From an uncultured Planctomycetales bacterium (GTDB lineage: Bacteria > Omnitrophota > Gorgyraeia > Zapsychrales > JAHFFX01), in the NCBI GenBank assembly GCA_964612665.1, contig CAZTCI010000001.1, positions 712,624 to 776,623 of the forward strand: a stretch of DNA of 64,000 nt, in the 5' to 3' direction. A program made the position numbers and the translations under genes. Positions 9,237 to 32,942 of the stretch are shown here, one piece after another. Each line of letters starts with the position of its first letter. The stretch's first letter is position 1. The notes under the pieces are model-generated. The model saw only the letters and a list, made by a program, of their open reading frames with translations. It was not told the origin of the DNA and did not search any database.

Positions 9237-9344
9237 GAACCCAAAATTGCACTAGCCAAATTACAAAATTACGGGCGCAAAAAAGCAGATTTTGGGGAAT
9301 TCTGGAACTGAGCCAAAGGTTAAAGAATTTTTTTTAGGTAATAA

Positions 9345-12048: not shown

Positions 12049-12084
12049 ATAAAGTGCGTTCTAAAACTAACTAAAATTTAATTG

Positions 12085-12347
12085 CAAATCTCAAATGTCA
12101 AAATCCAAATCAATTCCAAATTTTTTAATCCCAAACTGCTCTGACTTCTTTGTATTTCGGATAATACTACTTAAAATCAACAACAACTCTGTACTTTCAA
12201 TGATTAACCAAACCAACTCATTCTTATGTAATTCTTCCTTTCGGCAAAATTAAAGGCCCTATCATAGATGTTGAATTTTCTATTGCTTGACATTGGAAAT
12301 TTAATGATTTATTTGTCATTTGACATTTGGTTTTTGTCATTAATTAA
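12085..12347. repeat. intergenic repeat element copy 1 (26-mer caaatctcaaatgtcaaaatccaaat ... 27-mer tgacatttggtttttgtcattaattaa, with ~180-bp insert between); putative promoter/operator
   Basis: Exact 26-mer at 12085-12110 and 27-mer at 12321-12347 are both repeated at 17655-17680 and 17710-17736. TGACA-N10-TGTCA inverted half-sites. Lies just upstream of the pilin gene 11728..12048. Confidence 0.7.
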
Positions 12348-14797
12348 AACGGCGCATAATCACAGCTCACAAATTTTAAACTAAACCCGCGCTGAGTCCG
12401 GTCAGGACCTGAACCACCTGAACCATTGTGAAAGAAATATTCCGCGCACGTACGGCTCATAACCCCGTGCTCAAGGATGGCATTAACATAATCCCAACAC
12501 GCCGGGGAATCAGTGCGGCGGTTAATCATAAAAGCCTCAGGTGCTTCTTTACTGATGACATCTTTACATACAACATCCAGAGTATTTGGGCTAGGAATAG
12601 ATGATGTAACGGACGGATGTCTAAATTTATACCGCCACACATCCAGCCCCGTCGGTAATTTAATGGTTGTGTCTTTATCTTCGTCCCAGCGGATGACTTG
12701 GGATTTAACAGTTGCGCCAAGGAAACACTTCCGGGCGTTCGAATAATCGTCGGAAGAATCACAACCCCCATAAAGATGAAAGGCATCGCCGAGAGAATAA
12801 CAGCGCATCAAACCCCACATCGTCGTATACGTTTTTATCTTGGCGAGTTTTGGTTCTTTTATTGTTAAGCTCGCGTTATCCGCTTGGTAACAACGGCCGT
12901 TACACCGTCCAGGAATACGTCCGTCAACCCGCACGATATGCCATTTGGCCGAAGATTTAGAAGGATTGGTCGCCGGCGTTTTCCAGGCATAAATGGCTTC
13001 ATTAGGTAAAGGAACCAAGGCCAAATCTTCAATGCGCAGACGTTCTTTACGCAACGCCTCGCCCGCGTTAATGATGTCCGTAAAATGCGACATCGCGCTC
13101 GTGAAGAAATCTCTTAGATATTTAACTTCATTCTCGCGGGCCGCGAGAAAATTCCGTCGGCGTTGAAGTTTTGCCTGCTGATTGACACTTTCATTACCGC
13201 TTTGTACAAGTTTAGGCTGCCAGAATGCGGCGTAATTATTGCCGTCTCCCGCCGCGACGCTTGATGTTCCTCCGACGACAGGATCGGTAAAAGTATTTAA
13301 GCAGCTTCCCTTAGCTAACTTCCAGGATGCCACCGCCGCATTATAAAGAGGATTCCCTGGTCCCCATGTGCCGCACACGCCGGCATTGATGGTATAGGCC
13401 GCGGAACATGTGGCTGTTAGTCCTGAAAGATTAAGAACATTAAGATCGCAGACAATCGATTCGGTTGGCGTAAAAGTTGTTGGTCCTCCGACGGGCGGCA
13501 AGGTTCCCTGACCGATGACCGTTCCAGAAGAGTTATAACATTTATAATCCAAAGAGTTGTCCGCATCTCCAGTACTGTTCCATGAAAAGGAAGTTGGCGA
13601 ATTCGCTGGTCCTTGGCCTGGAACAAACGTTGCCGTACACGACGGACACGGACCGCAATCCCCCGGACAGTTTTTACATGTTTCCGTAAATTGCGACCAT
13701 CCTGTCTTTTCGCAGACACCGTTACCGCAAACAGGGCACGCTCCGCAATCTTGGGCACAGGTTGAACAGTCTTCATTGGCGTCGCATGTACCGTTGCCGC
13801 AGTAAGGACATCCTGCCGGATCAGCCACGCATTGTGTCATTACGTCACAAGCGTTTGGACAGCTTCTTGTTTGCAACCGTGTTCCCAGCGGACAGCCGCC
13901 TGTGCTACAAACAGGATCGCTCACCCACGACGAGCAAATACAACAATCTGGATTATCGAGAAGGCATTGTGTTGTTGCCGAACAATTATAGGTGCAGCTT
14001 CTCGTCTGGTACATATAGTTCCCAAGACAGCCCCCAGCACCGCAGCCGGCATTAGCGAAAGCGGTGCAGGAATCACCCAAACACTGCAATTGCGTCTGGC
14101 AGTTGGCAGGAATACAAGTCCGCGTCTGGCTCATTTGATCAGCAGGACAACCATTGCCGCAGCCACTATTAGCAAAATTACTACAATCGCAGGGAGGATT
14201 AATATTGGCGTAAATTCCGGTATACACATTATTGTAATTAGGACCATTATTAGTGAGCGTTAATCCGATTAATACCGTTATGCCTCCAGTCCCTCCCATG
14301 GACCATCCGTTAATTAGGGGAGCGCACTCAATTATCCATCCGCTTGTTAAACAGCCGGTATCAGTTTTTGATTGTACCCCCGTCGCTATCTGCCCGGCAG
14401 GACACGTAAGGTTGATATAACTAGAACCGGTGGGGCTCATACAGCGATTACAATTCGGTTGATTACCATTAGGAACAGCCACAAACTGGCTACCGCCACC
14501 ACACGTACCTGAGCTGGCGCCTATTCCGACGATACCATTAAAAGCGGTAACAATAGGTGTGCACGGGGCAACTATGTTGTCTGCTCTATTATCGCTACTA
14601 AAGGAGGTTATGGCTTGGTTCACTGGACACGACGAGGAAGAGTCAGCAAAAGCTTTCGAGACAGAAAGCATTAAACAAAGGGAGAAAATACTTCCAACAC
14701 TAAATAAAATCTTCGCCGAGAAAGACCGCATCAGCCCAAATTGTTTATTTCTTTTGAAATGAAACATATGTCCTTTATAAATTTTGATAAGCTTCAC
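12344..14797 (-). CDS. secreted cysteine-rich protein (817 aa) with tandem ~40-aa Cys modules; putative pilus-associated adhesin/tip protein
   Basis: N-terminal signal peptide (…SLCLMLSVSKAFA). Three tandem modules GCGxGxC…QTRxC…NC…TQC, then CGNGxC-type repeats. No recognisable enzyme motifs. Confidence 0.55.
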   Translation of the reverse strand: MKLIKIYKGHMFHFKRNKQFGLMRSFSAKILFSVGSIFSLCLMLSVSKAFADSSSSCPVNQAITSFSSDNRADNIVAPCTPIVTAFNGIVGIGASSGTCGGGSQFVAVPNGNQPNCNRCMSPTGSSYINLTCPAGQIATGVQSKTDTGCLTSGWIIECAPLINGWSMGGTGGITVLIGLTLTNNGPNYNNVYTGIYANINPPCDCSNFANSGCGNGCPADQMSQTRTCIPANCQTQLQCLGDSCTAFANAGCGAGGCLGNYMYQTRSCTYNCSATTQCLLDNPDCCICSSWVSDPVCSTGGCPLGTRLQTRSCPNACDVMTQCVADPAGCPYCGNGTCDANEDCSTCAQDCGACPVCGNGVCEKTGWSQFTETCKNCPGDCGPCPSCTATFVPGQGPANSPTSFSWNSTGDADNSLDYKCYNSSGTVIGQGTLPPVGGPTTFTPTESIVCDLNVLNLSGLTATCSAAYTINAGVCGTWGPGNPLYNAAVASWKLAKGSCLNTFTDPVVGGTSSVAAGDGNNYAAFWQPKLVQSGNESVNQQAKLQRRRNFLAARENEVKYLRDFFTSAMSHFTDIINAGEALRKERLRIEDLALVPLPNEAIYAWKTPATNPSKSSAKWHIVRVDGRIPGRCNGRCYQADNASLTIKEPKLAKIKTYTTMWGLMRCYSLGDAFHLYGGCDSSDDYSNARKCFLGATVKSQVIRWDEDKDTTIKLPTGLDVWRYKFRHPSVTSSIPSPNTLDVVCKDVISKEAPEAFMINRRTDSPACWDYVNAILEHGVMSRTCAEYFFHNGSGGSGPDRTQRGFSLKFVSCDYAPF

Positions 14798-14825: not shown

Positions 14826-17657
14826 TCAAAACGTCTGCACAATATTGACCTGACAACTTGAACCGCCCAATCCATTTGACACGATAATCGTTTTAATTCC
14901 AGGAGTGGAATACGTCGTCGTAAAAGTAGCCGTCCCGGTCCCGCTTACCGGAGAAGCACCTCCGGCTGCATACCATTTATTAAAGGCCGGACCAAGACCT
15001 CCAGCCGCGGATACAGTCACGGTCACTGGACCGTTAAAAGCAAATGCTTGTGTCGCGGGCGAACACACAACGCCAGAACCACCCGGATTAATAACGCCCT
15101 GCGTCGGATAACATCCAACAAGTGGTCCACTTGGTCCCTGCCATGGCGTCGGACAGGTCGGTAAACTCGAACACTTTGTACAATCTCTTAAGCAAGCATC
15201 AAATGCACCAACATCCGGATCCCGGGGCACAACGAAATAATTTGTATCAAAAGGTGAAACCGGATCATTGATTAAAAGCGAGCGTGGCAGATCCGCACAG
15301 TTGCTCTCCCTGCATTTATCTGTAGCCGTACCAATTTGTCCGACGTCGGCAGATGCCGTACCGCATATGCCAAATTTAGGAAGGTTGGTTATGTTGTAAT
15401 CTAAACAGGCAAGAATATTATCTAAAGTTCCCGTGCCCATGACTGCTGATTCCGGTGCTTTCATACCCGCACACATTCCCGGCGGAGTTCCAACGTTTCG
15501 GGTCGGCCAGGTTGTTTGAATGCCGACTGTATTATTAGGAATGCACAACGCTTGATTACAATCCGTTCCTTTAAAAGTAAGGGTCAACCAATAATTCAAT
15601 TTGTCGATCCAGGCTTGATGCTGATCGCGCCAAACAAGCATCTGGCCATTTTGATCGTTATAGAATTGATCAACGTTGCCTTGGGCAACGAGAAACTGCG
15701 CCGCGGTCGGATACCATTCTCTAAATGTGGTACGCAGCGTCATCATGTCCATATTGATTAACTGCGTGGCAAATTTTATAAAATCTTCTACCCCGTAAAC
15801 AAAATCATCAAACGGATCGTCCGGCCACATAGACGGCGGACCCGCTCCCAGCTGGCCGCACATACAGGGCCCTCGTGTTCCGTCGGGAAACGTGCAAGTT
15901 GTTCCGTATTTGGCGCAGGTCGCGGCGTAAGGCCACACGGTCGAACAATAGCGGTCAGCGCCTCGTTTCCATTTTCCGTTAGTAAACGGCGCCACATAAT
16001 CCTGGCCGCAGGTTGTTGCATATTGCATGGGCGCAACGAGAAGATCTTTTGTCGGGTCAGGTAAATTATAAAGAGATTTGACCATGTCTGGCCGCAGAAT
16101 TTTCTTGGAAGTGTCAACGGGGTTGGTGTTATCAAAGATACAGGGGCCTCCATTATATAATCCCGGCGCTGTAGGAAGCGTAAACTGAGGCGCAATTTCA
16201 ACCGCCAATGAACCTGGTAAAGTTAATATCGGATTAATGTTTCCGCATCGAGGATGGGACGGGTCGCAGATATTACATTCATACCGCCGATTTTTATCCG
16301 TCGAATCGAGCAAGAGACCACCTAAGTCCATTCCCCAATCCAATAGTTTATAAAAAATCGGATAAACATACTTCACCTCGCCGGGGGCAGCGAGATCACG
16401 CGTATCATCAAAACGAAACAGCGGTTGCTCCGGATCACTGCTTTGCGCCGCCGAATACATCTTAGAAGGCACATACATATTACGCGCAGGCTGCATTCGG
16501 AAATATTGATTCTCGTCGTCCTTGCCAAAAAGTTCAAGATATGAAAATCTGTTGTTAGAACTGTCTTCAAAAACAGAATTATAAACGTAAGGATAAGAAG
16601 AGCCATAGGGGGACGTCGCCGCACAATGGGCGGCGCCTGAATAGCCGCAGCGGACGGTAGGGTCTGGATCGTCGCAGCATTCTGGCACTGTAGAAAACGC
16701 AAGGCAGGAGCTCGAACTGGCGCAGCCCGTCGTCGGGTCAGGATCATCACAACACGCCGGGCGGCGCGGATCGATTTGGTTTTTATCAACACAACAGGGA
16801 TTACATTCCGCCGGCGGATCATTACTGCAACAAACATGCGCCGGATTTAAACTACAATCAACCGGGTCCCAAAGAAAATTAAGATAACCTTTAAGTGCAT
16901 CAATAAATGCTTGGATCGCGGCCTCGTCGGGTAATGACTGCTGCATCGATTCAAGCCGCTTAGTATAATAAAATCCAAACCGGCTGACCTGGTCGCCGCC
17001 GTTAACTTTGGTTCCAGAAGCAGTAACATAAGCACCATCTAAATCCATGTCGTGAAGATCGTCAATTTGTCCGGGATCTGTGACAACATTTTGTAAAGCG
17101 GCTAAGATTCCCCGCTCCAAAAATCCATCGGTTTTGGGCATGTTTGCGAACATTTTATTCCAAATTGAAGTTAAGCCTGGCTGGACAACTGTTATTTGCA
17201 AAGCCAATGCGGCTGTGGCGACGGCAAGAGCAAGAACGGCGAGCGTTTGAGACATTATAGCAATTAATTCATATTGCTGAAGAACCACAATAACAGCTAT
17301 TGCAACTACAATAATTAATATTTGCAAGACTCCGGTAAACCCACAGATCGTCAAATCACTTCCCGCGCCTTTTTCTCCGCCGAGCTGAGTTTGATAAAGT
17401 TGTTCCGTGTAACTGGCATAACTGGATGCCATCAATGCGGCGCTGGCGTTAGAAGCGACGGCTGTCAGAGTTTTTAATTCAGCGGATTTTCCAAAATTGA
17501 GAGATATCGCAAAAAAGATAATGCTGATGGCGGAGAGAAGAATCAAAATGAGGGCGACTTGGCCGTTGTTCTGCGAAGTCGAACGCGTGGATTTTCGAGA
17601 ATGAATTAATTTTTTAAGGAACCTAAGCACTCTAGATCCTCGAGAGGTTAATGACAA
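14826..17657 (-). CDS. membrane-anchored cysteine-rich protein (943 aa) with pseudopilin-like N-terminal hydrophobic segment and CCDDPDPT repeats
   Basis: Track ORF starts at a TTG inside the repeat element, so the true start is probably downstream. N-term …NNGQVALILILLSAISIIFFAISL, a second TM, then Cys-rich ectodomain. 28 bp upstream of the 817-aa gene, so probably co-transcribed. Confidence 0.5.
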   Translation of the reverse strand: MSLTSRGSRVLRFLKKLIHSRKSTRSTSQNNGQVALILILLSAISIIFFAISLNFGKSAELKTLTAVASNASAALMASSYASYTEQLYQTQLGGEKGAGSDLTICGFTGVLQILIIVVAIAVIVVLQQYELIAIMSQTLAVLALAVATAALALQITVVQPGLTSIWNKMFANMPKTDGFLERGILAALQNVVTDPGQIDDLHDMDLDGAYVTASGTKVNGGDQVSRFGFYYTKRLESMQQSLPDEAAIQAFIDALKGYLNFLWDPVDCSLNPAHVCCSNDPPAECNPCCVDKNQIDPRRPACCDDPDPTTGCASSSSCLAFSTVPECCDDPDPTVRCGYSGAAHCAATSPYGSSYPYVYNSVFEDSSNNRFSYLELFGKDDENQYFRMQPARNMYVPSKMYSAAQSSDPEQPLFRFDDTRDLAAPGEVKYVYPIFYKLLDWGMDLGGLLLDSTDKNRRYECNICDPSHPRCGNINPILTLPGSLAVEIAPQFTLPTAPGLYNGGPCIFDNTNPVDTSKKILRPDMVKSLYNLPDPTKDLLVAPMQYATTCGQDYVAPFTNGKWKRGADRYCSTVWPYAATCAKYGTTCTFPDGTRGPCMCGQLGAGPPSMWPDDPFDDFVYGVEDFIKFATQLINMDMMTLRTTFREWYPTAAQFLVAQGNVDQFYNDQNGQMLVWRDQHQAWIDKLNYWLTLTFKGTDCNQALCIPNNTVGIQTTWPTRNVGTPPGMCAGMKAPESAVMGTGTLDNILACLDYNITNLPKFGICGTASADVGQIGTATDKCRESNCADLPRSLLINDPVSPFDTNYFVVPRDPDVGAFDACLRDCTKCSSLPTCPTPWQGPSGPLVGCYPTQGVINPGGSGVVCSPATQAFAFNGPVTVTVSAAGGLGPAFNKWYAAGGASPVSGTGTATFTTTYSTPGIKTIIVSNGLGGSSCQVNIVQTF

Positions 17658-17736
17658 ATCTCAAATGTCAAAATCCAAATGAATTTCAAATGTTTTAATT
17701 TCCAAACCTTGACATTTGGTTTTTGTCATTAATTAA
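17652..17736. repeat. intergenic repeat element copy 2 (compact form, same 26-mer and 27-mer as copy 1)
   Basis: 17655-17680 and 17710-17736 identical to copy 1 motifs; immediately upstream of/overlapping annotated start of the 943-aa gene. Confidence 0.7.
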
Positions 17737-17848
17737 CGCTGTGTGCAAGTTTCTCTTTATCCGTTTGGGGATTTCAGCCTAAATTAGCCAAGTCGCGAGA
17801 AAATGAAGCTAATTCCCTATGTAGAAAAAAACTTGCACATCGCGTTAA

Positions 17849-18118
17849 TTACCAATTATTAAACACCAAATTCATCTTTGTGCCCCGATAAAAATCGCCG
17901 TCTAACTGATTGATCGGGCTGTTTGTATCTAAGCCTTGCCAGCTCTCCGAAACAGGCTTAATCAAAGACTTCTCATGCGCATCCCGACGGTAAACAAGGT
18001 CCAGCGCTGACCATCGAAAAGCCTTAAGGCAGGCATAGCCGAGCAATAAAGCAATGATGATGCAAAATGTAAATTCGAGAGTCACCTGCGCTTTTTCTTT
18101 GAACATCTTGTTGTCCAT
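17849..18118 (-). CDS. TadE-like pseudopilin (about 90 aa)
   Basis: Internal Met gives MDNKMFKEKAQVTLEFTFCIIIALLLGYA (A/QVTLEF + hydrophobic helix). Track ORF 17849..18235 has an implausible upstream extension overlapping the next gene. Confidence 0.5.
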   Translation of the reverse strand: MDNKMFKEKAQVTLEFTFCIIIALLLGYACLKAFRWSALDLVYRRDAHEKSLIKPVSESWQGLDTNSPINQLDGDFYRGTKMNLVFNNW

Positions 18119-18149
18119 TCTTCGGTTAAGGTGAAGAGGCCCGTTTCGG

Positions 18150-18662
18150 TTAACGGTAACGGTTATCGGTTTTTTCAAAATTACTCCATGCCTCAGCCAA
18201 TTTATAAATCTGGCGACCAGATTTATCGTAAGCATCTATCAATTCATCGCAAAGTTTTATATCTACATTCTGTGGATAAATATCTCTACTTTGACTCAAA
18301 CTTACAATCATTTCATTAGATTCAGCCATTGCATCATCGAGATATTTTTGAAAGCCAGCTTTTTGATGCCGCTTTGCATATCCTTCAGCTATTAACCGCG
18401 GAATTGCTTTGGAAGCTCGGCGGAGCTGATCTATTATTGGCCTTTTCCTTTCCAAAGAAAGGTTGTTCTTTTCGTCATCGAAGAGAAAAGGCCTAATATT
18501 GAGTTTTGTTGCATCCTTTGGATTTACAAAACTCAATAAATCATCTTCTTCGCATTTTGGCAGACAGGGAAGAATCTTTTGCATAACAGTGGTCATTGAT
18601 TTATAACTATCTTGATAAACTGTTAAATCTCTAAAGCTGGTAATTCGCTTCTTTTCTTCCAT
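18150..18662 (-). CDS. four-helix-bundle protein (23S rRNA intervening-sequence protein / bAvd-like family)
   Basis: SFRDLTVYQDSYK … DQLRRASKAIPRLIAEGYAKRHQKAGFQKYLDDAMAESNEMIVSL matches the conserved QLrRAavSIpaNIAEGygR…F…A.GS..E core of this family. Confidence 0.65.
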   Translation of the reverse strand: MEEKKRITSFRDLTVYQDSYKSMTTVMQKILPCLPKCEEDDLLSFVNPKDATKLNIRPFLFDDEKNNLSLERKRPIIDQLRRASKAIPRLIAEGYAKRHQKAGFQKYLDDAMAESNEMIVSLSQSRDIYPQNVDIKLCDELIDAYDKSGRQIYKLAEAWSNFEKTDNRYR

Positions 18663-18733
18663 AAGTTGTCTCTCACGTTGCCTTAACCAAAAACCGAAAC
18701 CGGCTTCCTAACCTTAACCTAAAAATTCACAAA

Positions 18734-20119
18734 TCAATATCCCCGCGGGCCGAGATCTTGGACCCATTTACGCCCGCGGCCTTCCCAAACCCGGCTTCGA
18801 ACATACAAGGTTAAAGAGCCTTCGTCAAAACAAGTTTTATAAACATTGGCCGCTGAAAAACAATTGGCCGTGGGATCACTCCCCAGTCCCGGGGGCACAC
18901 ACACCTCCACGTCGGGATTCCACTGAGTATTAGGCTGATGAACCGGCGCGTCCCAAACCGCGCCACTCCCAGTGCCGCAAACAAATCCGGTATTTCTACT
19001 TAACTGAACAACCCGTTGAACGATGTCTGTAATATTTCTTCTTTGCGTACTTTTAACATTTTGAGTGGCACTAATAATTTTTCCTTCTTCAATTTGAAGG
19101 TACGTTCCATCTCTAGTGTAAGTCCATCCTTGAGTGCCTTCACTTGAAAAACCAGGCGCGGCGCCGGGACTTTTACGGTTATGGGTCATATCCAAATCGC
19201 CTTCTTGAAAATCCAAAACACGCAATAATTTAATAGGAACATTGCCTGAACCTGATTTGTTTTTGCTGTTGGGCGTATATCTTTTGCCCTTTATATCAAC
19301 CATTTCCAAAATTTGTTCTTCCTTTAAATCGTTGTCAACGTCAAGCGAGGCATTCTGGCCTGTCTGCAAATTAATTGAGCTCGTCGTGGCTTTCACCATC
19401 TGCCATTGCCACGTAAAAAGAGGACGGTCGGCGGGTGAAACAATCGTCGTGCCGTCGCGGTAAAGGTCAAAGCAAGTCAGACACGTGTTCCACTTACAAC
19501 GATCGCAGGCATTGGGATCCCAGGCGGTATTCACCTTTAAATTCGGACTAATAGAATACAGGGCCATACAGCCATTCCCTTTCCCATTGCAATCGGGAAT
19601 CCAATTGGGGTCTGTGTCATTTTGTATGTTGTATTCTTTAAAAGCTGCTGTTGTAAATTGAAAATGTAAGCCGTTAATAAAAAAATCGGTGCGGGGAAGA
19701 CTATCGTATTCACCATAGTCAATGGGCATGAAAAGATTTTTAGAAAATGTGGCTGAAGCTCCGACGATAAACGGCGAACGCGATTGGACACCGAATTTAC
19801 TCTCTTCAGCGCTTAAACGGTCTTCAACGATGAGGACACTGGCAATATTGCGCGAGGCGTTGCCGGGTTTTTTAGACATGCGGTTTTTTCCGGTTTCGGC
19901 GGCCCGCAGAGACGTGGCCATAGCCATACGCATCGCTTTCAATGATTCACTTTGCGAAGTTCCAGCACTTAATGCATAACGAATCATCATGCCTAACATA
20001 AAAATCAAAACAGCTCCAAAAACGGCGAGTTCAGTTGACGTTTGAGCTTTTGAGTAAATGCTCTTGAACAACTTAATATCCCCCAATAATTGTATCTCCC
20101 GTCTTCGTTTCGAGGGCAT
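18734..20119 (-). CDS. large TadE/TadG-like pseudopilin-family protein (about 445-461 aa), Cys-containing ectodomain
   Basis: N-term …LFKSIYSKAQTSTELAVFGAVLIFMLGMMI resembles the pilin leaders. Track start overlaps upstream pilin gene by 47 nt, so the real start may be an internal non-ATG codon. Confidence 0.5.
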   Translation of the reverse strand: MPSKRRREIQLLGDIKLFKSIYSKAQTSTELAVFGAVLIFMLGMMIRYALSAGTSQSESLKAMRMAMATSLRAAETGKNRMSKKPGNASRNIASVLIVEDRLSAEESKFGVQSRSPFIVGASATFSKNLFMPIDYGEYDSLPRTDFFINGLHFQFTTAAFKEYNIQNDTDPNWIPDCNGKGNGCMALYSISPNLKVNTAWDPNACDRCKWNTCLTCFDLYRDGTTIVSPADRPLFTWQWQMVKATTSSINLQTGQNASLDVDNDLKEEQILEMVDIKGKRYTPNSKNKSGSGNVPIKLLRVLDFQEGDLDMTHNRKSPGAAPGFSSEGTQGWTYTRDGTYLQIEEGKIISATQNVKSTQRRNITDIVQRVVQLSRNTGFVCGTGSGAVWDAPVHQPNTQWNPDVEVCVPPGLGSDPTANCFSAANVYKTCFDEGSLTLYVRSRVWEGRGRKWVQDLGPRGY

Positions 20120-20387
20120 CAGATCTGTCGACGCGGTTGGTCCAGACTCCGTTCAGCGTCGTGTCATTAACCGCAACAATTTGCATTTCTTCATTGGCAA
20201 CACGGCTATAGTTAATAATGGTATTTGAAACGCGCGGATCGTATTGGTCTCCTAAATCATCAACTGTACTTCGCCACCGTCCGGAGATGCCTCGTTTCAT
20301 ATAATTGCTCATCGCAATAAAAGCACCAATGATGACCATTATCAAAACCGTGTATTCAATCGTCGATTGTCCTTTGCGTTTAAACAT
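20073..20387 (-). CDS. Flp-type pilin paralog G (104 aa)
   Basis: MFKRKGQSTIEYTVLIMVIIGAF… (G/QSTI-EY); KRGISGRWRSTVDDLGDQYDP family motif. Confidence 0.7.
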   Translation of the reverse strand: MFKRKGQSTIEYTVLIMVIIGAFIAMSNYMKRGISGRWRSTVDDLGDQYDPRVSNTIINYSRVANEEMQIVAVNDTTLNGVWTNRVDRSDALETKTGDTIIGGY

Positions 20388-20423
20388 TGAATCCTCTTTT
20401 ATTTGAAAAGAATAAAAACAAAT

Positions 20424-20837
20424 TTAATTATCCGCATTAATGGTGTTTGAAAAACCTAAATTTGAAACTGAATTGGATATAACATCGCCGGAATCATTGT
20501 AAATAAAATCAATGGCGCCGGAATTTTCTTTCCGGCTTTTATTTGTATTAGACCTCGTCGCTGAATAGGCCTGCATCAAATAGCCGCCGTAAGGCACGAT
20601 CCGCTGGTCAGATTCATTTTGTATGCCAACCTGATCAGCCGTGACCTTAATAACACTTTGAATACCGCGCTTACAAGCGTTAAACATCGCAAACAAAACC
20701 ATGGTCACAATTCCAATTAAAAGCATGTACTCCATCATGCTCTGAGCGGTTTTATTTTTTAAGAAATATAGACGGGTGGACTCGGAAGAAGCCGCCGTTT
20801 CCGTCAATAAGAATTTTTTTTTATCGACAAATTTCAT
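20424..20837 (-). CDS. Flp-type pilin paralog F (start uncertain, up to 137 aa)
   Basis: …KNKTAQSMMEYMLLIGIVTMVLFAMF (A/QSMM-EY); CKRGIQS… motif; start codon overlaps stop of paralog E (TAATG). Confidence 0.55.
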   Translation of the reverse strand: MKFVDKKKFLLTETAASSESTRLYFLKNKTAQSMMEYMLLIGIVTMVLFAMFNACKRGIQSVIKVTADQVGIQNESDQRIVPYGGYLMQAYSATRSNTNKSRKENSGAIDFIYNDSGDVISNSVSNLGFSNTINADN

Positions 20838-21226
20838 TAATTACCGCCCGTCAAATTGAAGTCTCTCGGCGGCAATTGATTACTATCAGTGGTGACTCTA
20901 ACTTGGTCCGTAAATTTGTCGCCGAAGATACCTGTTGTGCCGCCACCTTGGAGCGTTTGAACGGAATTCATTAAACTATCGACATTGCTTTGTGTCTGCA
21001 CGTAGTAAGGTTCATACTCCTGTAAAATTACATTACCAAGTGTGGCCGTATTGCTTGTGGCAATGCTGTGAATCATATAATTCCGGGCATCCCAAATCCG
21101 TCCCTGCAAAGATCTTTTTACATAAACCGACATCGCCGAAATAACTGCAATCACTAAGAAAAAAGTGATCACATATTCTGAGGTTGCCTGTCCCAATTTA
21201 TGCAAAACAATTTTAGAGTGAAACAT
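20837..21226 (-). CDS. Flp-type pilin paralog E (129 aa)
   Basis: …HKLGQATSEYVITFFLVIAVISAM… ; KRSLQGRIWDA…EYEPYY motif. Confidence 0.65.
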   Translation of the reverse strand: MFHSKIVLHKLGQATSEYVITFFLVIAVISAMSVYVKRSLQGRIWDARNYMIHSIATSNTATLGNVILQEYEPYYVQTQSNVDSLMNSVQTLQGGGTTGIFGDKFTDQVRVTTDSNQLPPRDFNLTGGN

Positions 21227-21400
21227 GTCTTGTTGCTATCATTTTTGTAATTATATTTGTAATAAAAACGGCTATGATTCTGGTTTTGCTGAACGTTAAA
21301 AAGTGCTGTCCCAAAAAACATGGCTTACCCCTCGTCGGGTGACGATTGAGTAAGCCATGTTTTTTGATCTATAGAACAACCCAACTCTATTACCGACGAG

Positions 21401-21724
21401 TTATTTACCCCAGAATGTCTGGTCTACGTTGATAATAGTTGAATCTTGGTTAATTAAGGTTGTTTCATTGGTGGCCATTTCTGAGCGGCTGATACCTTTG
21501 TCAAAAGTTTCAAAGGTTCTACCCTTTGTCATTGTCGACTTGTTCGCCTTGGTGTTCCCTGGGTCAAATTGATCACCGATATCATCGGTAGCACTCTTTA
21601 ACCGGCCTTGAACACCGCGCTTAATGTAAACTTGAATGGACAAAAGAGCACCAATAATAATGATAATCAAAACAGCATACTCCAAGGTGCTTTGTCCTTT
21701 CATTTTTCTTAGCAATTTAAACAT
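21401..21724 (-). CDS. Flp-type pilin paralog D (107 aa)
   Basis: MFKLLRKMKGQSTLEYAVLIIIIIGALL; KRGVQGRLKSATDDIGDQFDP; AAGGAGG RBS upstream. Confidence 0.7.
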   Translation of the reverse strand: MFKLLRKMKGQSTLEYAVLIIIIIGALLSIQVYIKRGVQGRLKSATDDIGDQFDPGNTKANKSTMTKGRTFETFDKGISRSEMATNETTLINQDSTIINVDQTFWGK

Positions 21725-21782
21725 TGATTAGTCCTCCTTAAAATTAGACATAAAGTTGCTTGCTTAACAAATGAAGCGGGTA

Positions 21783-22139
21783 TTAATGGCCAAGAACTTC
21801 GCCAAAATTCCCGTAATTAGACTGTTGGAAACCACCTAGGTCTCTATTGCGTGTACTATTTTCCAACTGACTGACTACACCCTTGTCTAACTGTTGGGTC
21901 TGATTCATGTCTCTGGAAATAGCGTAATTACTTTGTAGATAATACGGTTCGTATTGATCCGTAGCGCCCAAGCTGGATGTTTGGCTGGTTAAAAATTTAC
22001 CAGCATCGCGGATTCTACCTTGAAGACTTCGTTGCGCATATGTCTGCATGGCAATGATAGCCGCGACAACCAAAGCGATCAAAAGTGCATATTCTGCAGT
22101 GTTCTGACCTTTCTTATTTCTATTTATTCTTTTAAACAT
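21783..22139 (-). CDS. Flp-type pilin paralog C (118 aa)
   Basis: MFKRINRNKKGQNTAEYALLIALVVAAIIAM; QRSLQGRIRDA…DQYEPYY; GGAGG RBS. Confidence 0.7.
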   Translation of the reverse strand: MFKRINRNKKGQNTAEYALLIALVVAAIIAMQTYAQRSLQGRIRDAGKFLTSQTSSLGATDQYEPYYLQSNYAISRDMNQTQQLDKGVVSQLENSTRNRDLGGFQQSNYGNFGEVLGH

Positions 22140-22192
22140 TTATTTTTCCTCCTCGATGTGAATAAAACAAACCTGATTTCCCATGATTTAAG

Positions 22193-22390
22193 TTATGGTG
22201 ATAATGGCCGAGAACCAGAAAGTCTTATTGACATGTTGTTCATGCCATTTGTACCTTGAGTCAAGGTAGCGTTAAGGCTAGTCTGGAAAATCCCAGTTTT
22301 ACTGGCCAAAAAGCCAAGTAAAACGACTACAACGGCCGTCACCAAGAGAATGTACTCCAGCGTTGATTGACCTCTTTTGTTTTTCAACAT
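22193..22390 (-). CDS. Flp-type pilin paralog B (65 aa, classic Flp length)
   Basis: MLKNKRGQSTLEYILLVTAVVVVLLGFL; AAGGAGG RBS 8 nt upstream. Confidence 0.7.
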   Translation of the reverse strand: MLKNKRGQSTLEYILLVTAVVVVLLGFLASKTGIFQTSLNATLTQGTNGMNNMSIRLSGSRPLSP

Positions 22391-22419
22391 TTATATTCCT
22401 CCTTGAACAAATAATGACG

Positions 22420-22584
22420 TTAATTATTGGCGAACTCCTCTTCAACCACCTTTTCGGTTGCCTGCACGGAACGGAACACGTAGGTGCTCATTGCGACCAT
22501 TGCAGCTGAGACTAAAGCGACAACGACGGCATATTCAATTAGGCTTTGTCCTTTTTTGCTTCGTAGTGTTCTTAAATGCCGCAT
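22420..22584 (-). CDS. Flp-type pilin paralog A (54 aa, classic Flp length)
   Basis: internal Met gives MRHLRTLRSKKGQSLIEYAVVVALVSAAMVAM…; track extension to 22686 runs through a terminator hairpin and is rejected. Confidence 0.65.
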   Translation of the reverse strand: MRHLRTLRSKKGQSLIEYAVVVALVSAAMVAMSTYVFRSVQATEKVVEEEFANN

Positions 22585-22672
22585 TGTGTTTTTCCCACGT
22601 GTTAAAAGGTGATCGTTGCCATCCTCTTGTGCAACCACAAGCAGGAGCTCCACGACCAGGCTGTATAAAAAA

Positions 22673-22698
22673 ACCCTTGAACACAATTGTGTTCAAGG
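22673..22698 (-). terminator. perfect 26-bp palindrome CCCTTGAACACAATTGTGTTCAAGGG followed by T7 on minus strand (intrinsic terminator, possibly also operator)
   Basis: stem 11 bp/loop 4; minus strand continues TTTTTTTATACAG; a related hairpin cccttgaacgctgtcaaggg lies at ~22839-22860. Confidence 0.6.
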
Positions 22699-22907
22699 GT
22701 AGAGAACATAGATAAAGTAGATATAAAATATCTACAGTATTTGATACATATTTTTTTGATATTTGGGCGCATGTTTTTGTGTCTTTGATCAGACGATGAA
22801 AAACATATAATGTAAGACGGTACAAATATACCATGTGCCCTTGAACGCTGTCAAGGGAAAGAGTTTAAAAAATTCGACATATTAACAAATTAAAACACCC
22901 TTTCACA

Positions 22908-24572
22908 CTAAATTAGGACATCCATAGCAAAAAAAGACCCAGACGGGTCTTGAATATTCATATTTTTAAGCATTTTGATCGCAAATTCAAGCTCTTTACG
23001 ATATTGATAATCAGTGGGAACTTGTAATTTCACAATAATCTTTTGACCTATTTTTTGGAAACGGCCCGCCAATTTGTAAAAACGTTCACACATTTGATTA
23101 AAATCAAGTTCTTTGCAATTTTGGCTAAAAAAGTGACATTTGGCATACTCATTTAAAGCTAAGCTTATAACAAACGCATTTTCCAAGAGAGTGGGCACTT
23201 GCATGGGGTCGGATGCTACCATTTTTTCGTAAAAATCGAATGGAATTATTGAATTTTTTATTTCTTTATTGTCCAAACTGTCATTTTTATTTAAAAGTAA
23301 TGAAAAATTCACATCTTCTTTATAATCAAAGTTAAGATTATTAGTAAAAATCAAGCTACTGACCGCGTTAACCTTATTTTCTTCGCTTAAAATAATCAAT
23401 TTTAGAGGAATTTCCTTTGTCACACCCAAAGTTTCACCTTGAACTTCATGCTCACCGACATAAAAAGTTTTGTCTAAATCCTTGCAATAAAATTTTTTTA
23501 ACTTTATGTCTTGCAGAATATTAGAAACGCTACTTATTCTTTCAGGTCTTGTCACAAATAAAAATTGTCGTTTCTTTTTGGGGATTACATTAAATTGGGC
23601 CAATTCGTTGTCATTTTGATCCAAAATTTCTAGTTTGGACATTTCATTAGAAATTCCTTCTAAAGATTCCACTAATTTAAGCTCATTAGGTATATTTTCA
23701 GCCAATCCTTTGTCATATATGGTAATGTAATCCAAATTTGTAATAAAACGTCGTGTTACTTGTTTAATAAATCTTCCTAAAGAAAGGCCTGCGCCTCTTT
23801 CGCCAGATTGAAAAACCACCTGTTCTCTAGCGTCTAAGAAAACCTCTGTTTTGTCTTTTAAAGTTATCTTAAGCGAATTTGCTTCAGCAAAAATTTGTGG
23901 AATCTCATTGCCAACAACAAGAGACAATGTTCTCAAATCAGAAATGCTGTCTAGCAATTTTAAGAGCCTATCAAAACGAATCTTCTCTATCCCACTAAGT
24001 AAAGCCAACCCTGTTCCTTTATACGAATTGAAATCCTCAGGTTTGTTAATACCAAAAGACGGTGCCCATAACAAAACTTCACCAAGTTGGTTCACCTCGT
24101 CGGGATTAAAAATGTTTCCTTCCAAAAATTTTTCTAGAAATCTTCCCATTAAAAATCGTTCACCCAAATCCCATTCGGCAGCCTTTAAAAAAAACAGCCC
24201 TAATCTATCATGCATGGATTCGATTTTTTCTGCTTTTAAATCTTTTTTAGAAGATGTCCAAACGAGAGGGGATTCTTTTTTAGGCGCAAGGAGCAGGTTA
24301 GGTATGGTGAAAAGCTGTTGCTTTTTCTCGACGGGAATTTGAAATTTTTTGACTTTTTTATCTGTAAGGACGGCTGTGCGCCCAACTGGATTGCTCAACT
24401 GAGCGTCTTTGATGATTTGGTTTATGGCGGATTTTGAAACATTGATTTGAAATTTTTCTTCAACAATAGCAACTAAACGCCGGCAGCTTAATTGAGCGTC
24501 AGATTTTTTCTGATCAATAATAAAATCAATGACTTCTTTTCTTAATTTATAAACAACGCCCATGGAAACCAT
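22908..24572 (-). CDS. AT-rich hypothetical protein (554 aa) with N-terminal helix-turn-helix; ORFan-like
   Basis: Strongly K/N/I-rich and much lower GC than its neighbours. N-term LRKEVIDFIIDQKKSDAQLSCRRLVAIVEEKFQINVSKSAINQIIKD resembles resolvase/transposase-type HTH. No catalytic motifs recognised. Confidence 0.5.
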   Translation of the reverse strand: MVSMGVVYKLRKEVIDFIIDQKKSDAQLSCRRLVAIVEEKFQINVSKSAINQIIKDAQLSNPVGRTAVLTDKKVKKFQIPVEKKQQLFTIPNLLLAPKKESPLVWTSSKKDLKAEKIESMHDRLGLFFLKAAEWDLGERFLMGRFLEKFLEGNIFNPDEVNQLGEVLLWAPSFGINKPEDFNSYKGTGLALLSGIEKIRFDRLLKLLDSISDLRTLSLVVGNEIPQIFAEANSLKITLKDKTEVFLDAREQVVFQSGERGAGLSLGRFIKQVTRRFITNLDYITIYDKGLAENIPNELKLVESLEGISNEMSKLEILDQNDNELAQFNVIPKKKRQFLFVTRPERISSVSNILQDIKLKKFYCKDLDKTFYVGEHEVQGETLGVTKEIPLKLIILSEENKVNAVSSLIFTNNLNFDYKEDVNFSLLLNKNDSLDNKEIKNSIIPFDFYEKMVASDPMQVPTLLENAFVISLALNEYAKCHFFSQNCKELDFNQMCERFYKLAGRFQKIGQKIIVKLQVPTDYQYRKELEFAIKMLKNMNIQDPSGSFFAMDVLI

Positions 24573-25434: not shown

Positions 25435-27603
25435 TTATGGTGTAAAAATGTTTTTATCCAAAGCGATGCCTTTAGAAGAAAAATCTTCGTAACATTTGGG
25501 AACATAACCTGTGGTTTTATAGTCACCTAGAATTTTCCCGTCGCTGTCTGTTCCTAGACGTTCAAAAATAAAAATGTCGCGTAAATCCAACTGGTGTGTC
25601 TTCTGATCAACGCCGGCCACTTCGGTTATGCCGGTTATTTTTCTTGAACCATCTGAAAAACGGTTGACTTGAACGATGATGTCGATGGCTGAGCCGATCA
25701 TTTCATACATGGCGCTTAAGGGAAGTTCAACGCCCGTTAAAAGCATCATGGCCGTTAAACGAACCAAAACATCGCGTGTGGTATTGGCGTGGATTGTCGT
25801 CAAGGAACCATCGTGACCTGTGTTCATAGCCTGCAACATATCTAATACTTCTGCGCCGCGGCACTCACCAATGACAATCCTATCAGGACGCATACGAAGC
25901 GTATTCACAAACAAATCACGAATAGAAACAGCGCCTTTTCCTTCAATGTTCGCCGGGCGTGCTTCCAACCGGCCCCAATGACTGTACGGTTTAAGCCGCA
26001 ATTCGGCGGCGTCTTCTATGGTGATAATGCGTTCTCCGTCGGGAACAAAAAGGGAAATAATGTTAAGCAATGTTGTTTTACCGGCGCCTGTACCGCCGGA
26101 AACAATAATGTTACTTCTTCCCAAAACTGCGGCATGAAGAAAATCAGCCATCGGCTGAGACAAACTCTTAAAGCGATGGATCAAATCGTCAATCGTATAA
26201 CGTTCTTGGCTGAATTTACGGATCGTGACCATTGGTCCATTTAAAGATAACGGACGAATAATAGCATTAATACGAGACCCGTCGGGCAAACGCGCATCAA
26301 CCATCGGTGTCGACTCATCAATACGCCGGCCCAAGGGCGCAACAATACGGTCAATAACCGAACGAACCTGTTGTTCGGAAATAAACCGCCGATTGGTTAA
26401 AATTAATTTCCCATGTTTTTCAATGTAGATCTCATCCTTCTTATTAACCATGATATCGGTGACGTCTGAATCTGCCAAAAACTCTTCGATAGGACCAAGC
26501 CCTAGCGTTTCGTTTACAATTTCTTTAACCAGCCGGGTTCGCTCTTCATGGGAAGAAATGATAGCGCCCGCTTCCTCGGCGAGAATATTGCTGACAATTT
26601 TTTCAGTTGTCTCACGGATTTTCTGAAACTGCTGCGGGTTCGCCAAGGCTTCCGGAGTCAGGTCTTTTAAATCCATCTTGCCTAACAACTTTTCATGGGT
26701 CTTCTTTTTAAGCCGAACGACTTCGTCTTCTTCGTTAACATTGTAAATTTTATCTTTCCCTTTTTCCTGTACGCCTTGAGCAATGCCAAATTTTTCCCAA
26801 AACTCACCCGGCTTACCTAAATCTTCTGTTGTTCTTAATTTAGCTATGTCGGTCGCCTGCACAAAAAGTCCAGGCGCATTTAAATCGTTGACCATCTTAT
26901 TAAAAGCCGCCGCGACTTTGCTGCGCGGACTATCAACGACACAGGGAACGCCGCGGTTTAAAGCCATTCCAACCGCTTTTCCGTCGGAAGGAATTTGGGC
27001 AAAAATTTCGCAAGCCAAGGCCGCCTTAACTTCCTGCCAGGCAACCCCGCCATAACTTTCAGCACGGTTTAAAATTAACCTGACCATTTTGAGAGGGAAA
27101 TGCAGGCTCTGTAAAACTTCTAAGGCCGTTCGGATTTGATAAACAGCCAGAATATCTGGTGTCGCAATAAGAAAAATTAGATTGGAATAATCTAAAATGG
27201 TGATCAGCGTCTCGCTAAAGGCCTTACCGCCGTCGATAATAATGTAATCGTAAAGCTGGCCAACTTTTTTAAGAAAGGGTTTAATATTGTCAGGTGTAAT
27301 GTGACCAACTTGGCGGACGTGCGTGACGGCGGGGAGAAAATCAAATCCAGCAGAATGCGCCACAACATATCTTTTAATAATCGTGGGGTCGTTGTCTTTT
27401 TCTATTTCAGCCAAAAGATCAACGATAGCTAGACGGGGGGACAAATTGAGCATCCGGGCCATATCCTGAGCGGCCTGGAAGTCCATGTCCAAAAGCAAAA
27501 CCTTGTGGCCGCTCAACGCCAATGCCGTCGAGAGATTGACACACACAAAAGTTTTGCCAACCCCACCTTTATTACTAAAAACTGCTACGCTTTTTGCAGG
27601 CAT
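25435..27603 (-). CDS. tadZ-tadA: fused TadZ/CpaE-like ParA-family ATPase (N-term, about 260 aa) + TadA/CpaF secretion ATPase (C-term); 722 aa
   Basis: N-term deviant Walker A VFSNKGGVGKT (MinD/ParA/CpaE). C-term SGGTGAGKTTLLN…ITIEDAAEL…TGHDGSLTTIHANT (VirB11/CpaF family). One uninterrupted ORF. Confidence 0.8.
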   Translation of the reverse strand: MPAKSVAVFSNKGGVGKTFVCVNLSTALALSGHKVLLLDMDFQAAQDMARMLNLSPRLAIVDLLAEIEKDNDPTIIKRYVVAHSAGFDFLPAVTHVRQVGHITPDNIKPFLKKVGQLYDYIIIDGGKAFSETLITILDYSNLIFLIATPDILAVYQIRTALEVLQSLHFPLKMVRLILNRAESYGGVAWQEVKAALACEIFAQIPSDGKAVGMALNRGVPCVVDSPRSKVAAAFNKMVNDLNAPGLFVQATDIAKLRTTEDLGKPGEFWEKFGIAQGVQEKGKDKIYNVNEEDEVVRLKKKTHEKLLGKMDLKDLTPEALANPQQFQKIRETTEKIVSNILAEEAGAIISSHEERTRLVKEIVNETLGLGPIEEFLADSDVTDIMVNKKDEIYIEKHGKLILTNRRFISEQQVRSVIDRIVAPLGRRIDESTPMVDARLPDGSRINAIIRPLSLNGPMVTIRKFSQERYTIDDLIHRFKSLSQPMADFLHAAVLGRSNIIVSGGTGAGKTTLLNIISLFVPDGERIITIEDAAELRLKPYSHWGRLEARPANIEGKGAVSIRDLFVNTLRMRPDRIVIGECRGAEVLDMLQAMNTGHDGSLTTIHANTTRDVLVRLTAMMLLTGVELPLSAMYEMIGSAIDIIVQVNRFSDGSRKITGITEVAGVDQKTHQLDLRDIFIFERLGTDSDGKILGDYKTTGYVPKCYEDFSSKGIALDKNIFTP

Positions 27604-27607: not shown

Positions 27608-29827
27608 TTATTTTTGCAAACTAAAAACGATTGGTATTGTTAAATCCAATTCTTGGAGGTTAGTATCCGCAGGAAACGCGGTGTAAGGGGCCAGGCTTTT
27701 GGCGGTTGTAAGAGCAGCTTCATCGAAGATGTCGTGGCCAGAGGACTCTTTTACAGCAGCATAAGCTAAAGTCCCATCGCTTAAAATATGCAGCATCAAT
27801 TTTACGGTGCCTTCCCAATTGTATTGCCTTGCCTCGTCGGGATAATTGATGGCACTAGCGATTTTTTGTTGGACGGCGGCAGCGTAATTTTGACTTGATG
27901 AACTCTTAGCAGCCGCCGGTTTTGAAACTTTCTGACTATAAACAATAGGAACGTTCAACACCAAATCATCTAAATTTAATTTCAAAGGAAACGCGTCATA
28001 AGGTGAAAGAACTTGTGCCGTATGAAGCGCATCTTTATCAAAAATATTGTATCCTGAGGATTCTTTAATTTGTGAATCAGCTAATGAACCATTTTTTAAA
28101 AGATGTAAGCTCAATGTAACCGTTCCCTCCCAGCCTTTTTCTTTAGCTTCCGGCGGGTAGGTGATAGCCTTAGAAATTTTTTCTTGGATTGTTTTTGAAT
28201 AAGCGTCGATCAGGTCCTTTTGTTCAGCATTATTTCCGGATGCCCCTGCTTGTTCTCCTGAAGATTGATCTGTCGCTTCGGCGGTGGCATCTTGAAGCGG
28301 TATGGCATCAGCATTTTCAGACATTGAGCTTTGTGTTGGCATTCTCGACGGAGGGACTGATGTTTCAGATGTCATTGATGAATCTGATGACGACACTGAA
28401 GCGGCGTCGGATGTGGAAGATTCCGTTGTCTTAGCAGCAGGCGGAGGAACCTCTTTCGTTTTTTGCCGAAGAATCGTAGGCGTTACGGAAATAATTAACT
28501 CAGTGTCTTGATTGTTAGACGAAGGCGTTTTACGGGATCGGAAAACCGCACCCACAATAGGAATATCGCCCAGGAAAGGAACCTTGCGGACTGTTTCTCC
28601 CTCAACATGCTTAATCAAGCCAGCCAGAATAATCGTCTGCTGGTCGTCTAAAAGCAGCTGCGTTTGTGCCGTGCGGGTAGCAAAGGCAGGAACTTGCCCG
28701 ACGGAATGCGTTGGATCAACTTCGCTGACCTCGGTATTCATGACGACATTGACTTTATCCTGTTGGATTGTGGGGGTGATCGTTAGACTGATACCAAAAT
28801 CTTTAAACTCAACATTAGTCTGCACATTACCACCAACGGTCGTAGATGTCGTACTGATTGGAACCTGTCCTCCGACGAGAAAACTGGCCTCCTTACCGCT
28901 TTTGACGACCAATTTAGGTTTTGAAAGGACCCGGCCTTTTCCTTCTTCGACGACTGCATTAATAACGGCAGAAACAGATGTTGTTCGTCTAAGTTTGGCT
29001 ACTTTAAAAATGCTGTCTGCAAAAGGAATAGAACTTTGTGCTGTGCTGTCGACAAGCCCTTTTCCAGGCAACCCCTCGGTAATATTAATTTGATCAACCC
29101 AGTCTAAGCCGATGCTTTTGGATGCGGTGGCATTTAACTCGGCGAGCTGAACATCAACCTGAACCAAGTCGTTGCTGATATCTTCACGCAAAAGATTAAT
29201 CACATTGGTCATGTAAGGATGAATAATAGCGTCGGCCTCGGCTTTCTTTTGTTCACTTAAATTACCCGAAGCCACGACCTTACCTTCGTAAAGGTTCACT
29301 TCAAGATTAACTCCGTCGATCTTGGCGACTTTGAAAAGTTCTTCCAGCCGGGTTTTTAAAATATTTAAATCCTCGGCGTAAACACGGATCATTATTGTCC
29401 GCTTGCCATATTGGTCCCACACAAATAAAGCTGATTGTCCTGGTTTCTTGGCCAGCAAGAGGATTTCATCATTGGTGACATTCGCGATGTCCGCAATGTC
29501 AGGATCACTTACAGAAACACGCACTAATGAATAGGCTTTAATCGGAGTGAGTTCTCCTTTAAGCATGTGAACTTCGTCTTGATGTAGGATGTCAGGAGGA
29601 AGGTCTTTGGAGTCTTGCTTAGCATCTTGTTTCGTATCTTGGCTGGCGGTCTTGTCCTCGCCAAAAATTTCTTTCGGAGCAATCCATAGAGTTTCCATTA
29701 AAATGAAACCCATCAAAACAACCCACGCACAGCTCTTATTGATTTTTTTATCAAAAGCTCGGTGATTTAGGCTAGATCTCTTTTCCTCGACGGAATAAAA
29801 ATCTATAAGCTGTTTTTTATTTTTCAT
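27608..29827 (-). CDS. cpaC: Flp pilus secretin CpaC/RcpA-like with two C-terminal TonB C-terminal (TonB_C) domains; 739 aa
   Basis: Secretin core …VRKVPFLGDIPIVGAVFRS…ELIISVTPTIL. Two repeats at the C-terminus, YPPEAKEKGWEGTVTLSLHLLKNGSL…ESSGYNIFDKDAL and YPDEARQYNWEGTVKLMLHILSDGTL…ESSGHDIFDEAAL, each fit the TonB_C signature. Confidence 0.75.
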   Translation of the reverse strand: MKNKKQLIDFYSVEEKRSSLNHRAFDKKINKSCAWVVLMGFILMETLWIAPKEIFGEDKTASQDTKQDAKQDSKDLPPDILHQDEVHMLKGELTPIKAYSLVRVSVSDPDIADIANVTNDEILLLAKKPGQSALFVWDQYGKRTIMIRVYAEDLNILKTRLEELFKVAKIDGVNLEVNLYEGKVVASGNLSEQKKAEADAIIHPYMTNVINLLREDISNDLVQVDVQLAELNATASKSIGLDWVDQINITEGLPGKGLVDSTAQSSIPFADSIFKVAKLRRTTSVSAVINAVVEEGKGRVLSKPKLVVKSGKEASFLVGGQVPISTTSTTVGGNVQTNVEFKDFGISLTITPTIQQDKVNVVMNTEVSEVDPTHSVGQVPAFATRTAQTQLLLDDQQTIILAGLIKHVEGETVRKVPFLGDIPIVGAVFRSRKTPSSNNQDTELIISVTPTILRQKTKEVPPPAAKTTESSTSDAASVSSSDSSMTSETSVPPSRMPTQSSMSENADAIPLQDATAEATDQSSGEQAGASGNNAEQKDLIDAYSKTIQEKISKAITYPPEAKEKGWEGTVTLSLHLLKNGSLADSQIKESSGYNIFDKDALHTAQVLSPYDAFPLKLNLDDLVLNVPIVYSQKVSKPAAAKSSSSQNYAAAVQQKIASAINYPDEARQYNWEGTVKLMLHILSDGTLAYAAVKESSGHDIFDEAALTTAKSLAPYTAFPADTNLQELDLTIPIVFSLQK

Positions 29828-32771: not shown

Positions 32772-32942
32772 AAAATTTAGTCCATTTCGACAAATTAATA
32801 TTTATCGAAGACCTTAAGGACTATTAGCGGGTTTTTCTCGTCAGTAGACAATTTTTTGGAGAATACATTTAAAGTATATTATAAAGAAAACCGGGATGCA
32901 ATGTGCTTATCAGGTTTTTTTAATTTTTTTCTAAAAAAATTT

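Follow-up and report, generated by a model that had tools for sequence, protein, structure and literature searches.

A 23S-rRNA-IVS-family gene within a Tad/Flp-type pilus operon is probably the cargo of an IVS-type selfish cassette

Background

What is a gene of the four-helix-bundle family known from 23S rRNA intervening sequences (IVSs) doing between two genes of a pilus operon? The question is raised by a minus-strand open reading frame (ORF) in a 64-kb stretch of DNA (hereafter the window, at its full length), a chromosomal region close to the replication origin (dnaA, dnaN, gyrB, gyrA, yidC, parAB). The initial annotation described the ORF as an IVS/Avd-related gene that had turned up unexpectedly in a surface-appendage operon, and proposed that it might mark a remnant or partial diversity-generating retroelement (DGR) aimed at the neighbouring surface proteins or, alternatively, have an unrelated nucleic-acid-binding role. 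The Pfam family in question, PF05635, is among the commonest "hypothetical" annotations in bacterial genomes. To our knowledge, more than 30 years have passed without an explanation of how rRNA intervening sequences arose and spread.

An intact PF05635 gene in a pilus locus

The gene lies inside a minus-strand Tad/Flp-type pilus locus that encodes a CpaF-like ATPase, a secretin, RcpC, two TadB/C-like proteins and Flp-like pilins (20073-22686), in keeping with its description as an unexpected guest in a surface-appendage operon. The features discussed below are, in the direction of the minus strand:

18734-20119, minus strand: upstream host gene of the Tad-like locus, 461 amino acids
18681-18732, minus strand: 5' arm of inverted repeat I1, beginning 2 nt past the stop codon of the upstream gene
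18150-18662, minus strand: four-helix-bundle gene, 170 amino acids, PF05635/TIGR02436, 'LIAEGYAKRHQKxGFQKY' subfamily
18435-18536, minus strand: in-frame insertion of 102 nt (34 amino acids, residues 43-76) in the loop joining helices 1 and 2, with two local hairpins
18111-18162, minus strand: 3' arm of inverted repeat I1, covering the last codons and stop codon of the ORF and ending at the downstream start codon
17849-18116, minus strand: downstream host gene, TadE-like pseudopilin of about 88 amino acids beginning MDNKMFKEKAQVTLEFTF, with its start at the outer end of the 3' arm

The ORF is intact, begins with ATG and contains the QLRRASKAIPRLIAEGYAKR...FQKYLDDAMAESNEM core that had been recognized in it at the outset. 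An identical protein is recorded from an NCBI contig of 779 kb, and a 6.5-kb Logan contig repeats the window sequence. Against PF05635 (23S_rRNA_IVP), the product scores 43.6 bits where the gathering cut-off is 33.8; against TIGR02436 ('four helix bundle protein'), it scores 37.3 bits where the cut-off is 24. Homologues that have no insert reach 59.5 bits across the whole domain. These scores confirm the original family assignment: the ORF is a real member of PF05635/TIGR02436, the four-helix-bundle family of 23S rRNA IVSs. The top 120 database homologues are 129-155 amino acids long, mostly about 131-135, and those that are named come mainly from Omnitrophota; with the 34-residue insertion set aside, the window protein is 66-74% identical to 12 aligned homologues (131-155 amino acids).

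The AF2 monomer model (pLDDT 75) is a helical bundle with four long helices and one short one (residues 14-33, 38-45, 76-96, 103-128 and 135-169), and has the up-and-down four-helix-bundle fold. Its top fold match in the PDB is 2RLD (BT_0352, "S23 ribosomal protein family"; probability 1.0, TM 0.81), and a profile of the subfamily matches 2GSC (XCC0516; E = 1.5e-5); bAvd was not recovered in this profile search of solved structures. BT_0352 (by fold) and XCC0516 (by profile), both four-helix bundles, are thus the closest solved relatives, from which the window protein differs by the 34-residue disordered insert between helices 1 and 2 and by replacement of two positions of the conserved motif. 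This helix-2 motif of the family, GxxRxxxSxxxNxxE (PMC3936711), reads QLRRASKAIPRLIAEG in the window protein, where R and E-G are retained and the S and N positions are occupied by A and L, replacements that are common to its whole subfamily (KAIPRLIAEG). In itself, the protein is an unremarkable representative of a known and very large family.

The placement of the gene between pseudopilin genes holds for the downstream neighbour, which is TadE-like, but not for the upstream 461-amino-acid protein, which has no Pfam hit and whose database relatives, where their source is named, are Omnitrophota proteins. Orthologues of the TadE-like protein (78-97 amino acids) start at the same motif MDNKMFKEKAQVTLEFTF and place its start at about 18116; consequently, the ORF start given as 18235 is spurious, and so is the overlap with the four-helix-bundle gene that it seems to create.

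Several other features of the locus were noted in passing. At the N-terminus of the CpaF-like secretion ATPase is a ParA/MinD-like domain, in a TadZ-like fusion, and the secretin has C-terminal TonB_C matches in two stretches (the genes at 25435-27603 and 27608-29827 encode the ATPase and the secretin). Two large Cys-rich proteins (817 amino acids, 12344-14797; 943 amino acids, 14826-17657) and a protein of 554 amino acids (22908-24572) have no Pfam hit, and related Omnitrophota operons contain ORFs of similar size at the positions of these three genes. Elsewhere, the window holds an ORF of more than 3083 amino acids (3-9251, minus strand) that runs off the window start, a 6S RNA gene (58384-58545), four tRNA genes (Glu, Cys, Leu and Val; 36250-36325 and 51437-51973) and, by self-comparison, other palindromes of 24-75 nt (62359-62431, 21312-21366, 22673-22700, 32932-32961 and 48376-48399).

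A 102-nt insertion in the window copy

The 102-nt insertion is missing from all 12 aligned homologues, and its residues are disordered in the AF2 model (pLDDT below 50). It holds the internal inverted repeats I3 and I8 and has short inverted ends (TTATTGAG / CCAATAA). The one frame in which the insertion is open is the frame in use, and an open frame is seen in just 6% of shuffles, so that the ORF seems to have been maintained through it. The possibility that the insertion is itself a MITE was rejected, as neither the window nor loci L001-L080 contain a further copy, no phage match was found, and a metagenome-wide scan with its first hairpin returned only 21 unrelated hairpins. From the sequences compared, the insertion appears to be lineage-specific and unique to the window copy.

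Inverted-repeat arms around the gene

The ORF is bracketed by inverted repeat I1, the 52-nt arms of which are 75% complementary and 518 nt apart. The 5' arm consists of GGTTAAGG/GGTTAGG repeats surrounding a core, GCCGGTTTCG (18695-18704), and the 3' arm has its core, CGAAACGGGC, at 18139-18148. Together, arms and ORF form a cassette of about 620 nt (18111-18732) that fills the spacer between two co-directional pilus-operon genes. When the RNA of 18095-18745 (651 nt) is folded computationally, the arms form the closing stem in the MFE structure (-190 kcal/mol; z = -10.4) and in the centroid structure alike. The window copy is imperfect and may be decaying: its arms are not fully complementary, their core contains a G.G clash, and its ORF carries the 102-nt insert.

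Matches to the arm core within the window do not exceed chance (6 against 5.95 expected, two of the six being the arms themselves), and nothing above chance was found that would serve as a promoter or terminator of the cassette's own. Neither a target-site duplication nor a defined insertion boundary was found, and a target-site duplication is not definable here because the empty sites (described below) are too diverged.

The next spacer of the operon, between the TadE-like gene and the gene for the 943-amino-acid protein (17650-17851), contains two hairpins that have no ORF: HP-A, with arms at 17730-17759 and 17822-17851 (z = -5.3), and HP-B, with arms at 17650-17671 and 17709-17730 (z = -4.0). 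The arms of HP-B are found again at 12078-12347, where they enclose about 220 nt of loop.

Conservation of the arms among relatives

Relatives of the gene were sought in one genome per species, yielding 342, of which the best 80 were analysed in detail. These best 80 are 49-58% identical at the amino acid level and are labelled as belonging to more than 12 phyla (Omnitrophota, Desulfobacterota, Planctomycetota, Elusimicrobia, several CPR groups, Cloacimonadota, Bacteroidota, Chloroflexota and others), the labels being those of MAG bins, in which binning errors are possible. An inverted repeat with a score of at least 25 flanks 57% of the best-80 genes, compared with 4% of 235 other genes from the same loci (Mann-Whitney p = 1e-19). 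The arms share a consensus, 5' GGTAACGAA-GCCCGTATCG and 3' CGAAACGGGC-ATCGTAACC, amid GGTWASG-like repeats; most 5' cores lie about 25-40 nt ahead of the ATG and most 3' cores 0-17 nt past the stop codon. Other PF05635 subfamilies are likewise flanked by repeats, of different sequence.

The arms of the relatives form a helix of about 25 bp with compensatory changes and three positions that are nearly always mismatched. Among 42 arm pairs, 78% of cells are paired, compared with 26-43% in slid registers; pairing is inflated in the core columns because the pairs were picked partly by similarity to the 12-nt core. Changes on both sides of the stem (e.g. CCC/GGG, CCG/CGG, CTC/GAG) occur in 20 of 27 pairs, compared with 9-12 when the arms are slid, and none of 500 shuffles reached the observed stem values. 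Three columns of the stem are unpaired in 25-33 of the 42 copies by way of A.A, T.T, A.C or G.A, and the columns beside them are mostly paired in about 89-100% of copies. The extent of pairing, the two-sided changes and the three constantly unpaired columns indicate that the stem is under selection with fixed mismatch positions. G.U combinations number 24 and A.C combinations 15; the stem statistics are compatible with an RNA stem, a single-stranded-DNA hairpin or co-evolving terminal repeats of DNA, and cannot separate these.

Where the flanking genes are co-oriented, the four-helix-bundle gene shares their direction (sense) in 60 cases and opposes it (antisense) in 3, with gaps to the flanking genes that are typically 40-150 nt. 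The neighbouring genes belong to 183 unrelated clusters, among them histidine kinases, HD-GYP proteins, NuoF-like proteins, glycosyltransferases and ABC transporters; neither a recurring transposase nor a recurring partner gene was seen near the relatives, and a second PF05635 gene is present in 12 loci. Two of the relatives (L004 and L044) are in different contexts of the same MAG and are 92% identical at the nucleotide level. None of the best 80 is located in an rRNA gene, all having protein-coding ORFs close by, and an Rfam scan of eight related loci with large non-coding gaps detected no rRNA. An rRNA location was rejected for the window element as well: the window contains no rRNA, and two protein-coding genes flank the element.

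In some genomes (L048, L009, L038 and L058), two cassettes of the same subfamily lie within 1-2 kb of each other with one host gene between them; those of L048 (1544-1963 and 2938-3357) are 86% identical at the nucleotide level and have the same arms.

These data bear directly on the possibility that the element is a DNA transposon of the MITE type, its arms being terminal inverted repeats that a transposase supplied in trans binds as double-stranded DNA and its gene a mere passenger. The conserved sequence of the terminal inverted repeats, the existence of an ORF-less derivative (see below), the many genomic contexts and the two nearly identical copies in one MAG would all be explained in this way. 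MITEs and REP-like palindromes likewise have terminal inverted repeats, an intergenic location, ORF-less hairpin derivatives and several copies per genome; the window element differs from them in a conserved ORF that does not encode a known transposase, fixed mismatches in the stem and a strong sense bias. We consider a MITE unlikely. Three positions that are kept unpaired by differing base combinations, next to neighbours that are almost always paired, suggest selection on a folded single strand and not on two duplex sites. The 60:3 bias is unexpected for cut-and-paste insertion unless it is imposed by selection, the ORF has been kept at 49-58% identity together with the arms, unlike a passenger gene, and neither a target-site duplication nor a transposase recurring nearby was found. 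Between a simple DNA transposon and an intermediate folded from a single strand, the fixed mismatches and the orientation bias favour the latter, without proving it.

An integron attC cassette was also considered and rejected, as the inverted repeat spans the ORF rather than following it, no integrase is found among the neighbours, which are housekeeping operon genes, and the order GGTTAAGG...CCTTAACC is the reverse of RYYYAAC...GTTRRRY.

The same junction in orthologous operons

The junction between the two host genes is empty in five orthologous operons: in three of them (L114, L115 and L116) the large gene overlaps the TadE-like gene, and in the other two (L087 and L088) the two genes are 44 and 33 nt apart, respectively. 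In L085, the junction contains a hairpin (z = -7.4) that has no ORF and the arms of which align with those of the window element, its 3' arm being homologous to the 3' arm of the window cassette. The junction of L082 is occupied by a PF05635 gene that is frameshifted, belongs to another subfamily and has GGAGAGAG-type arms, and that of L090 by a member of a third PF05635 subfamily with yet other arms. In sum, the junction is empty in five operons, occupied by an ORF-less hairpin in one and filled in three (the window, L082 and L090). The next spacer of the operon varies likewise, containing a PF05635 gene in L082 (4904-5254), an ORF-less hairpin with GCTCGT-type arms in L085 (about 6775-6880), or nothing.

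Such polymorphism is difficult to reconcile with the element being a domesticated regulator of the pilus operon, the protein of which would bind nucleic acid and so control how the Tad-like transcript is expressed or processed, and the stem of which would be a host element for RNA processing or stability. A regulator might be expected from the reading frame that stayed open through the 102-nt insertion, from the placement of the element exactly between a host stop codon and a host start codon, and from the strong hairpins in other spacers of the operon. This explanation is nonetheless improbable: the junction is empty in five orthologous operons, with the host genes overlapping in three; two orthologous operons have other PF05635 subfamilies with unrelated arms; and the same subfamily occurs in 183 unrelated gene neighbourhoods.

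No evidence for a diversity-generating retroelement

The proposal that the gene marks a remnant or partial DGR would require it to be an orphan Avd, with its reverse transcriptase (RT) encoded elsewhere, serving to diversify one of the adjacent Cys-rich or pilin proteins. Among Pfam families, PF05635 is the commonest neighbour of DGR reverse transcriptases, and distant homology of the PF05635 and bAvd families has been proposed in the CDD and in the literature (PMC10053308); moreover, DGR parts are able to act in trans on distant targets (PMC5758913), and the contig, of which the DGR scan covered 64 kb, is at least 779 kb long. Avd genes normally adjoin the TR and RT (PMC5758913), however, and the absence of a reverse transcriptase from the window, already remarked upon in the initial annotation, was verified by a Pfam scan (no RVT_1/RT domain among 29 ORFs) and by a motif screen of all six frames. 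The same signature is absent within 6 kb on either side of the best 80 relatives (837 kb including the window), in a screen that detected the positive control, Brt of phage BPP-1. Self-BLAST of the window revealed no TR/VR-like pair with adenine-specific differences, the only 60-nt repeats in the self-comparison being devoid of adenine-specific mismatches.

The protein itself resembles bAvd of the BPP-1 DGR (Bordetella phage; PDB 4DWL) in being a small four-helix bundle, and differs from it in most other respects. Whereas bAvd matches PF22296 ('bAvd-like') at 123 bits, the window protein matches only PF05635; hhalign of the two gives a probability of 0.3%, and the nearest structures, 2GSC and 2RLD, are of the S23p/IVS type. 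The subfamily is less basic than the Avds (calculated pI 6.6-8.95, compared with 9.5±0.7; PMC5758913), and there is neither an adjacent TR or RT nor any link to phages. A phage origin was rejected in its own right, since the 2.9 million viral contigs of IMG/VR contain no relative and there is no PHROG hit. As far as could be tested, the proposal of a DGR directed at the neighbouring surface proteins is contradicted by these results, and we regard it as very improbable.

An unlikely alternative: a defence or toxin module

PF05635 has been grouped with HEPN-like helical bundles. A single-gene defence or toxin module, comprising a HEPN-like four-helix nuclease or a phage-sensing factor, might also draw support from the 23S_rRNA_IVP genes that have been reported inside cas loci (PMC3936711). 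We give this explanation hardly any credence: no significant PADLOC hit and no recurring partner gene were found, and the genes in cas loci fit a pattern of operon hitch-hiking too.

A probable IVS-type cassette outside rRNA

The gene is most plausibly the cargo of an IVS-type selfish cassette that sits between two co-transcribed genes of the pilus operon, outside rRNA; we hold this to be probable. Read in this way, the gene is neither part of a DGR nor specifically involved in the pilus. Known rRNA IVSs comprise an S23p ORF and complementary borders with heptamer repeats, RNase III being the enzyme that excises them (PMC4990558). The window element is built like the 23S rRNA IVSs of Coxiella burnetii, Leptospira, Xanthomonas and Brucella (PMC4990558) in that it has an S23p/PF05635 ORF, located in the loop of a stem formed by complementary flanks, with short tandem repeats beside the ORF; in both, the orientation is sense to the host transcript, the occurrence is sporadic, and ORF-less versions exist at the same site. 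The two differ in host site, which is helix 25 or 45 of 23S rRNA for the IVSs and the spacer of an mRNA operon for the window element, and in the recurrence of the arm sequence of the window element in relatives labelled as many phyla. As the best 80 relatives all lie outside rRNA genes, it is family and architecture that connect the element with true rRNA IVSs.

The cassette would be read through from the host operon, having no promoter of its own. In the transcript, its arms would pair, so that the ORF is looped out and the upstream stop codon is brought close to the downstream start codon, which would make the insertion tolerable. By analogy with rRNA IVSs, for which excision by RNase III has been demonstrated, the stem of the window element would probably be cut by the same enzyme. 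Homology with XCC0516 and Avd suggests that the protein is a pentameric nucleic-acid-binding four-helix bundle, which may act on the element's own stem.

A precedent may be the 23S_rRNA_IVP genes previously seen between cmr3 and cmr2 (PMC3936711), which resemble the window gene in being PF05635 genes wedged into an unrelated co-directional operon. That study read the association with cas genes as functional and did not describe flanking inverted repeats, whereas the flanking repeats and the site polymorphism of the window gene point to hitch-hiking. Genes of the same family are scattered in the rRNA insertions of CPR bacteria (10.1101/2024.02.27.582315). A literature search of limited coverage found no description of a flanking stem outside rRNA, of the mismatch pattern or of the site polymorphism.

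A bolder generalization, which we put forward as speculative and rather doubtful, is that PF05635 cassettes are widespread autonomous mobile elements that invade transcribed spacers of rRNA and of operons alike by way of a folded single-strand (RNA or single-stranded DNA) hairpin. The pentamer would recognize the mismatched stem, rRNA IVSs would be a special case of such elements, and the ORF-less hairpins would be their non-autonomous derivatives.

Conclusions

If PF05635 genes keep the build of an IVS outside rRNA, with a stem that is conserved among relatives labelled as many phyla, constant mismatches, a sense orientation and a junction that may be filled, empty or occupied by a hairpin alone, they constitute a defined, testable element. 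A PF05635 gene found on its own should be taken neither as evidence for a DGR nor as a working part of the operon around it, whether a pilus operon as here or a cas operon as elsewhere.
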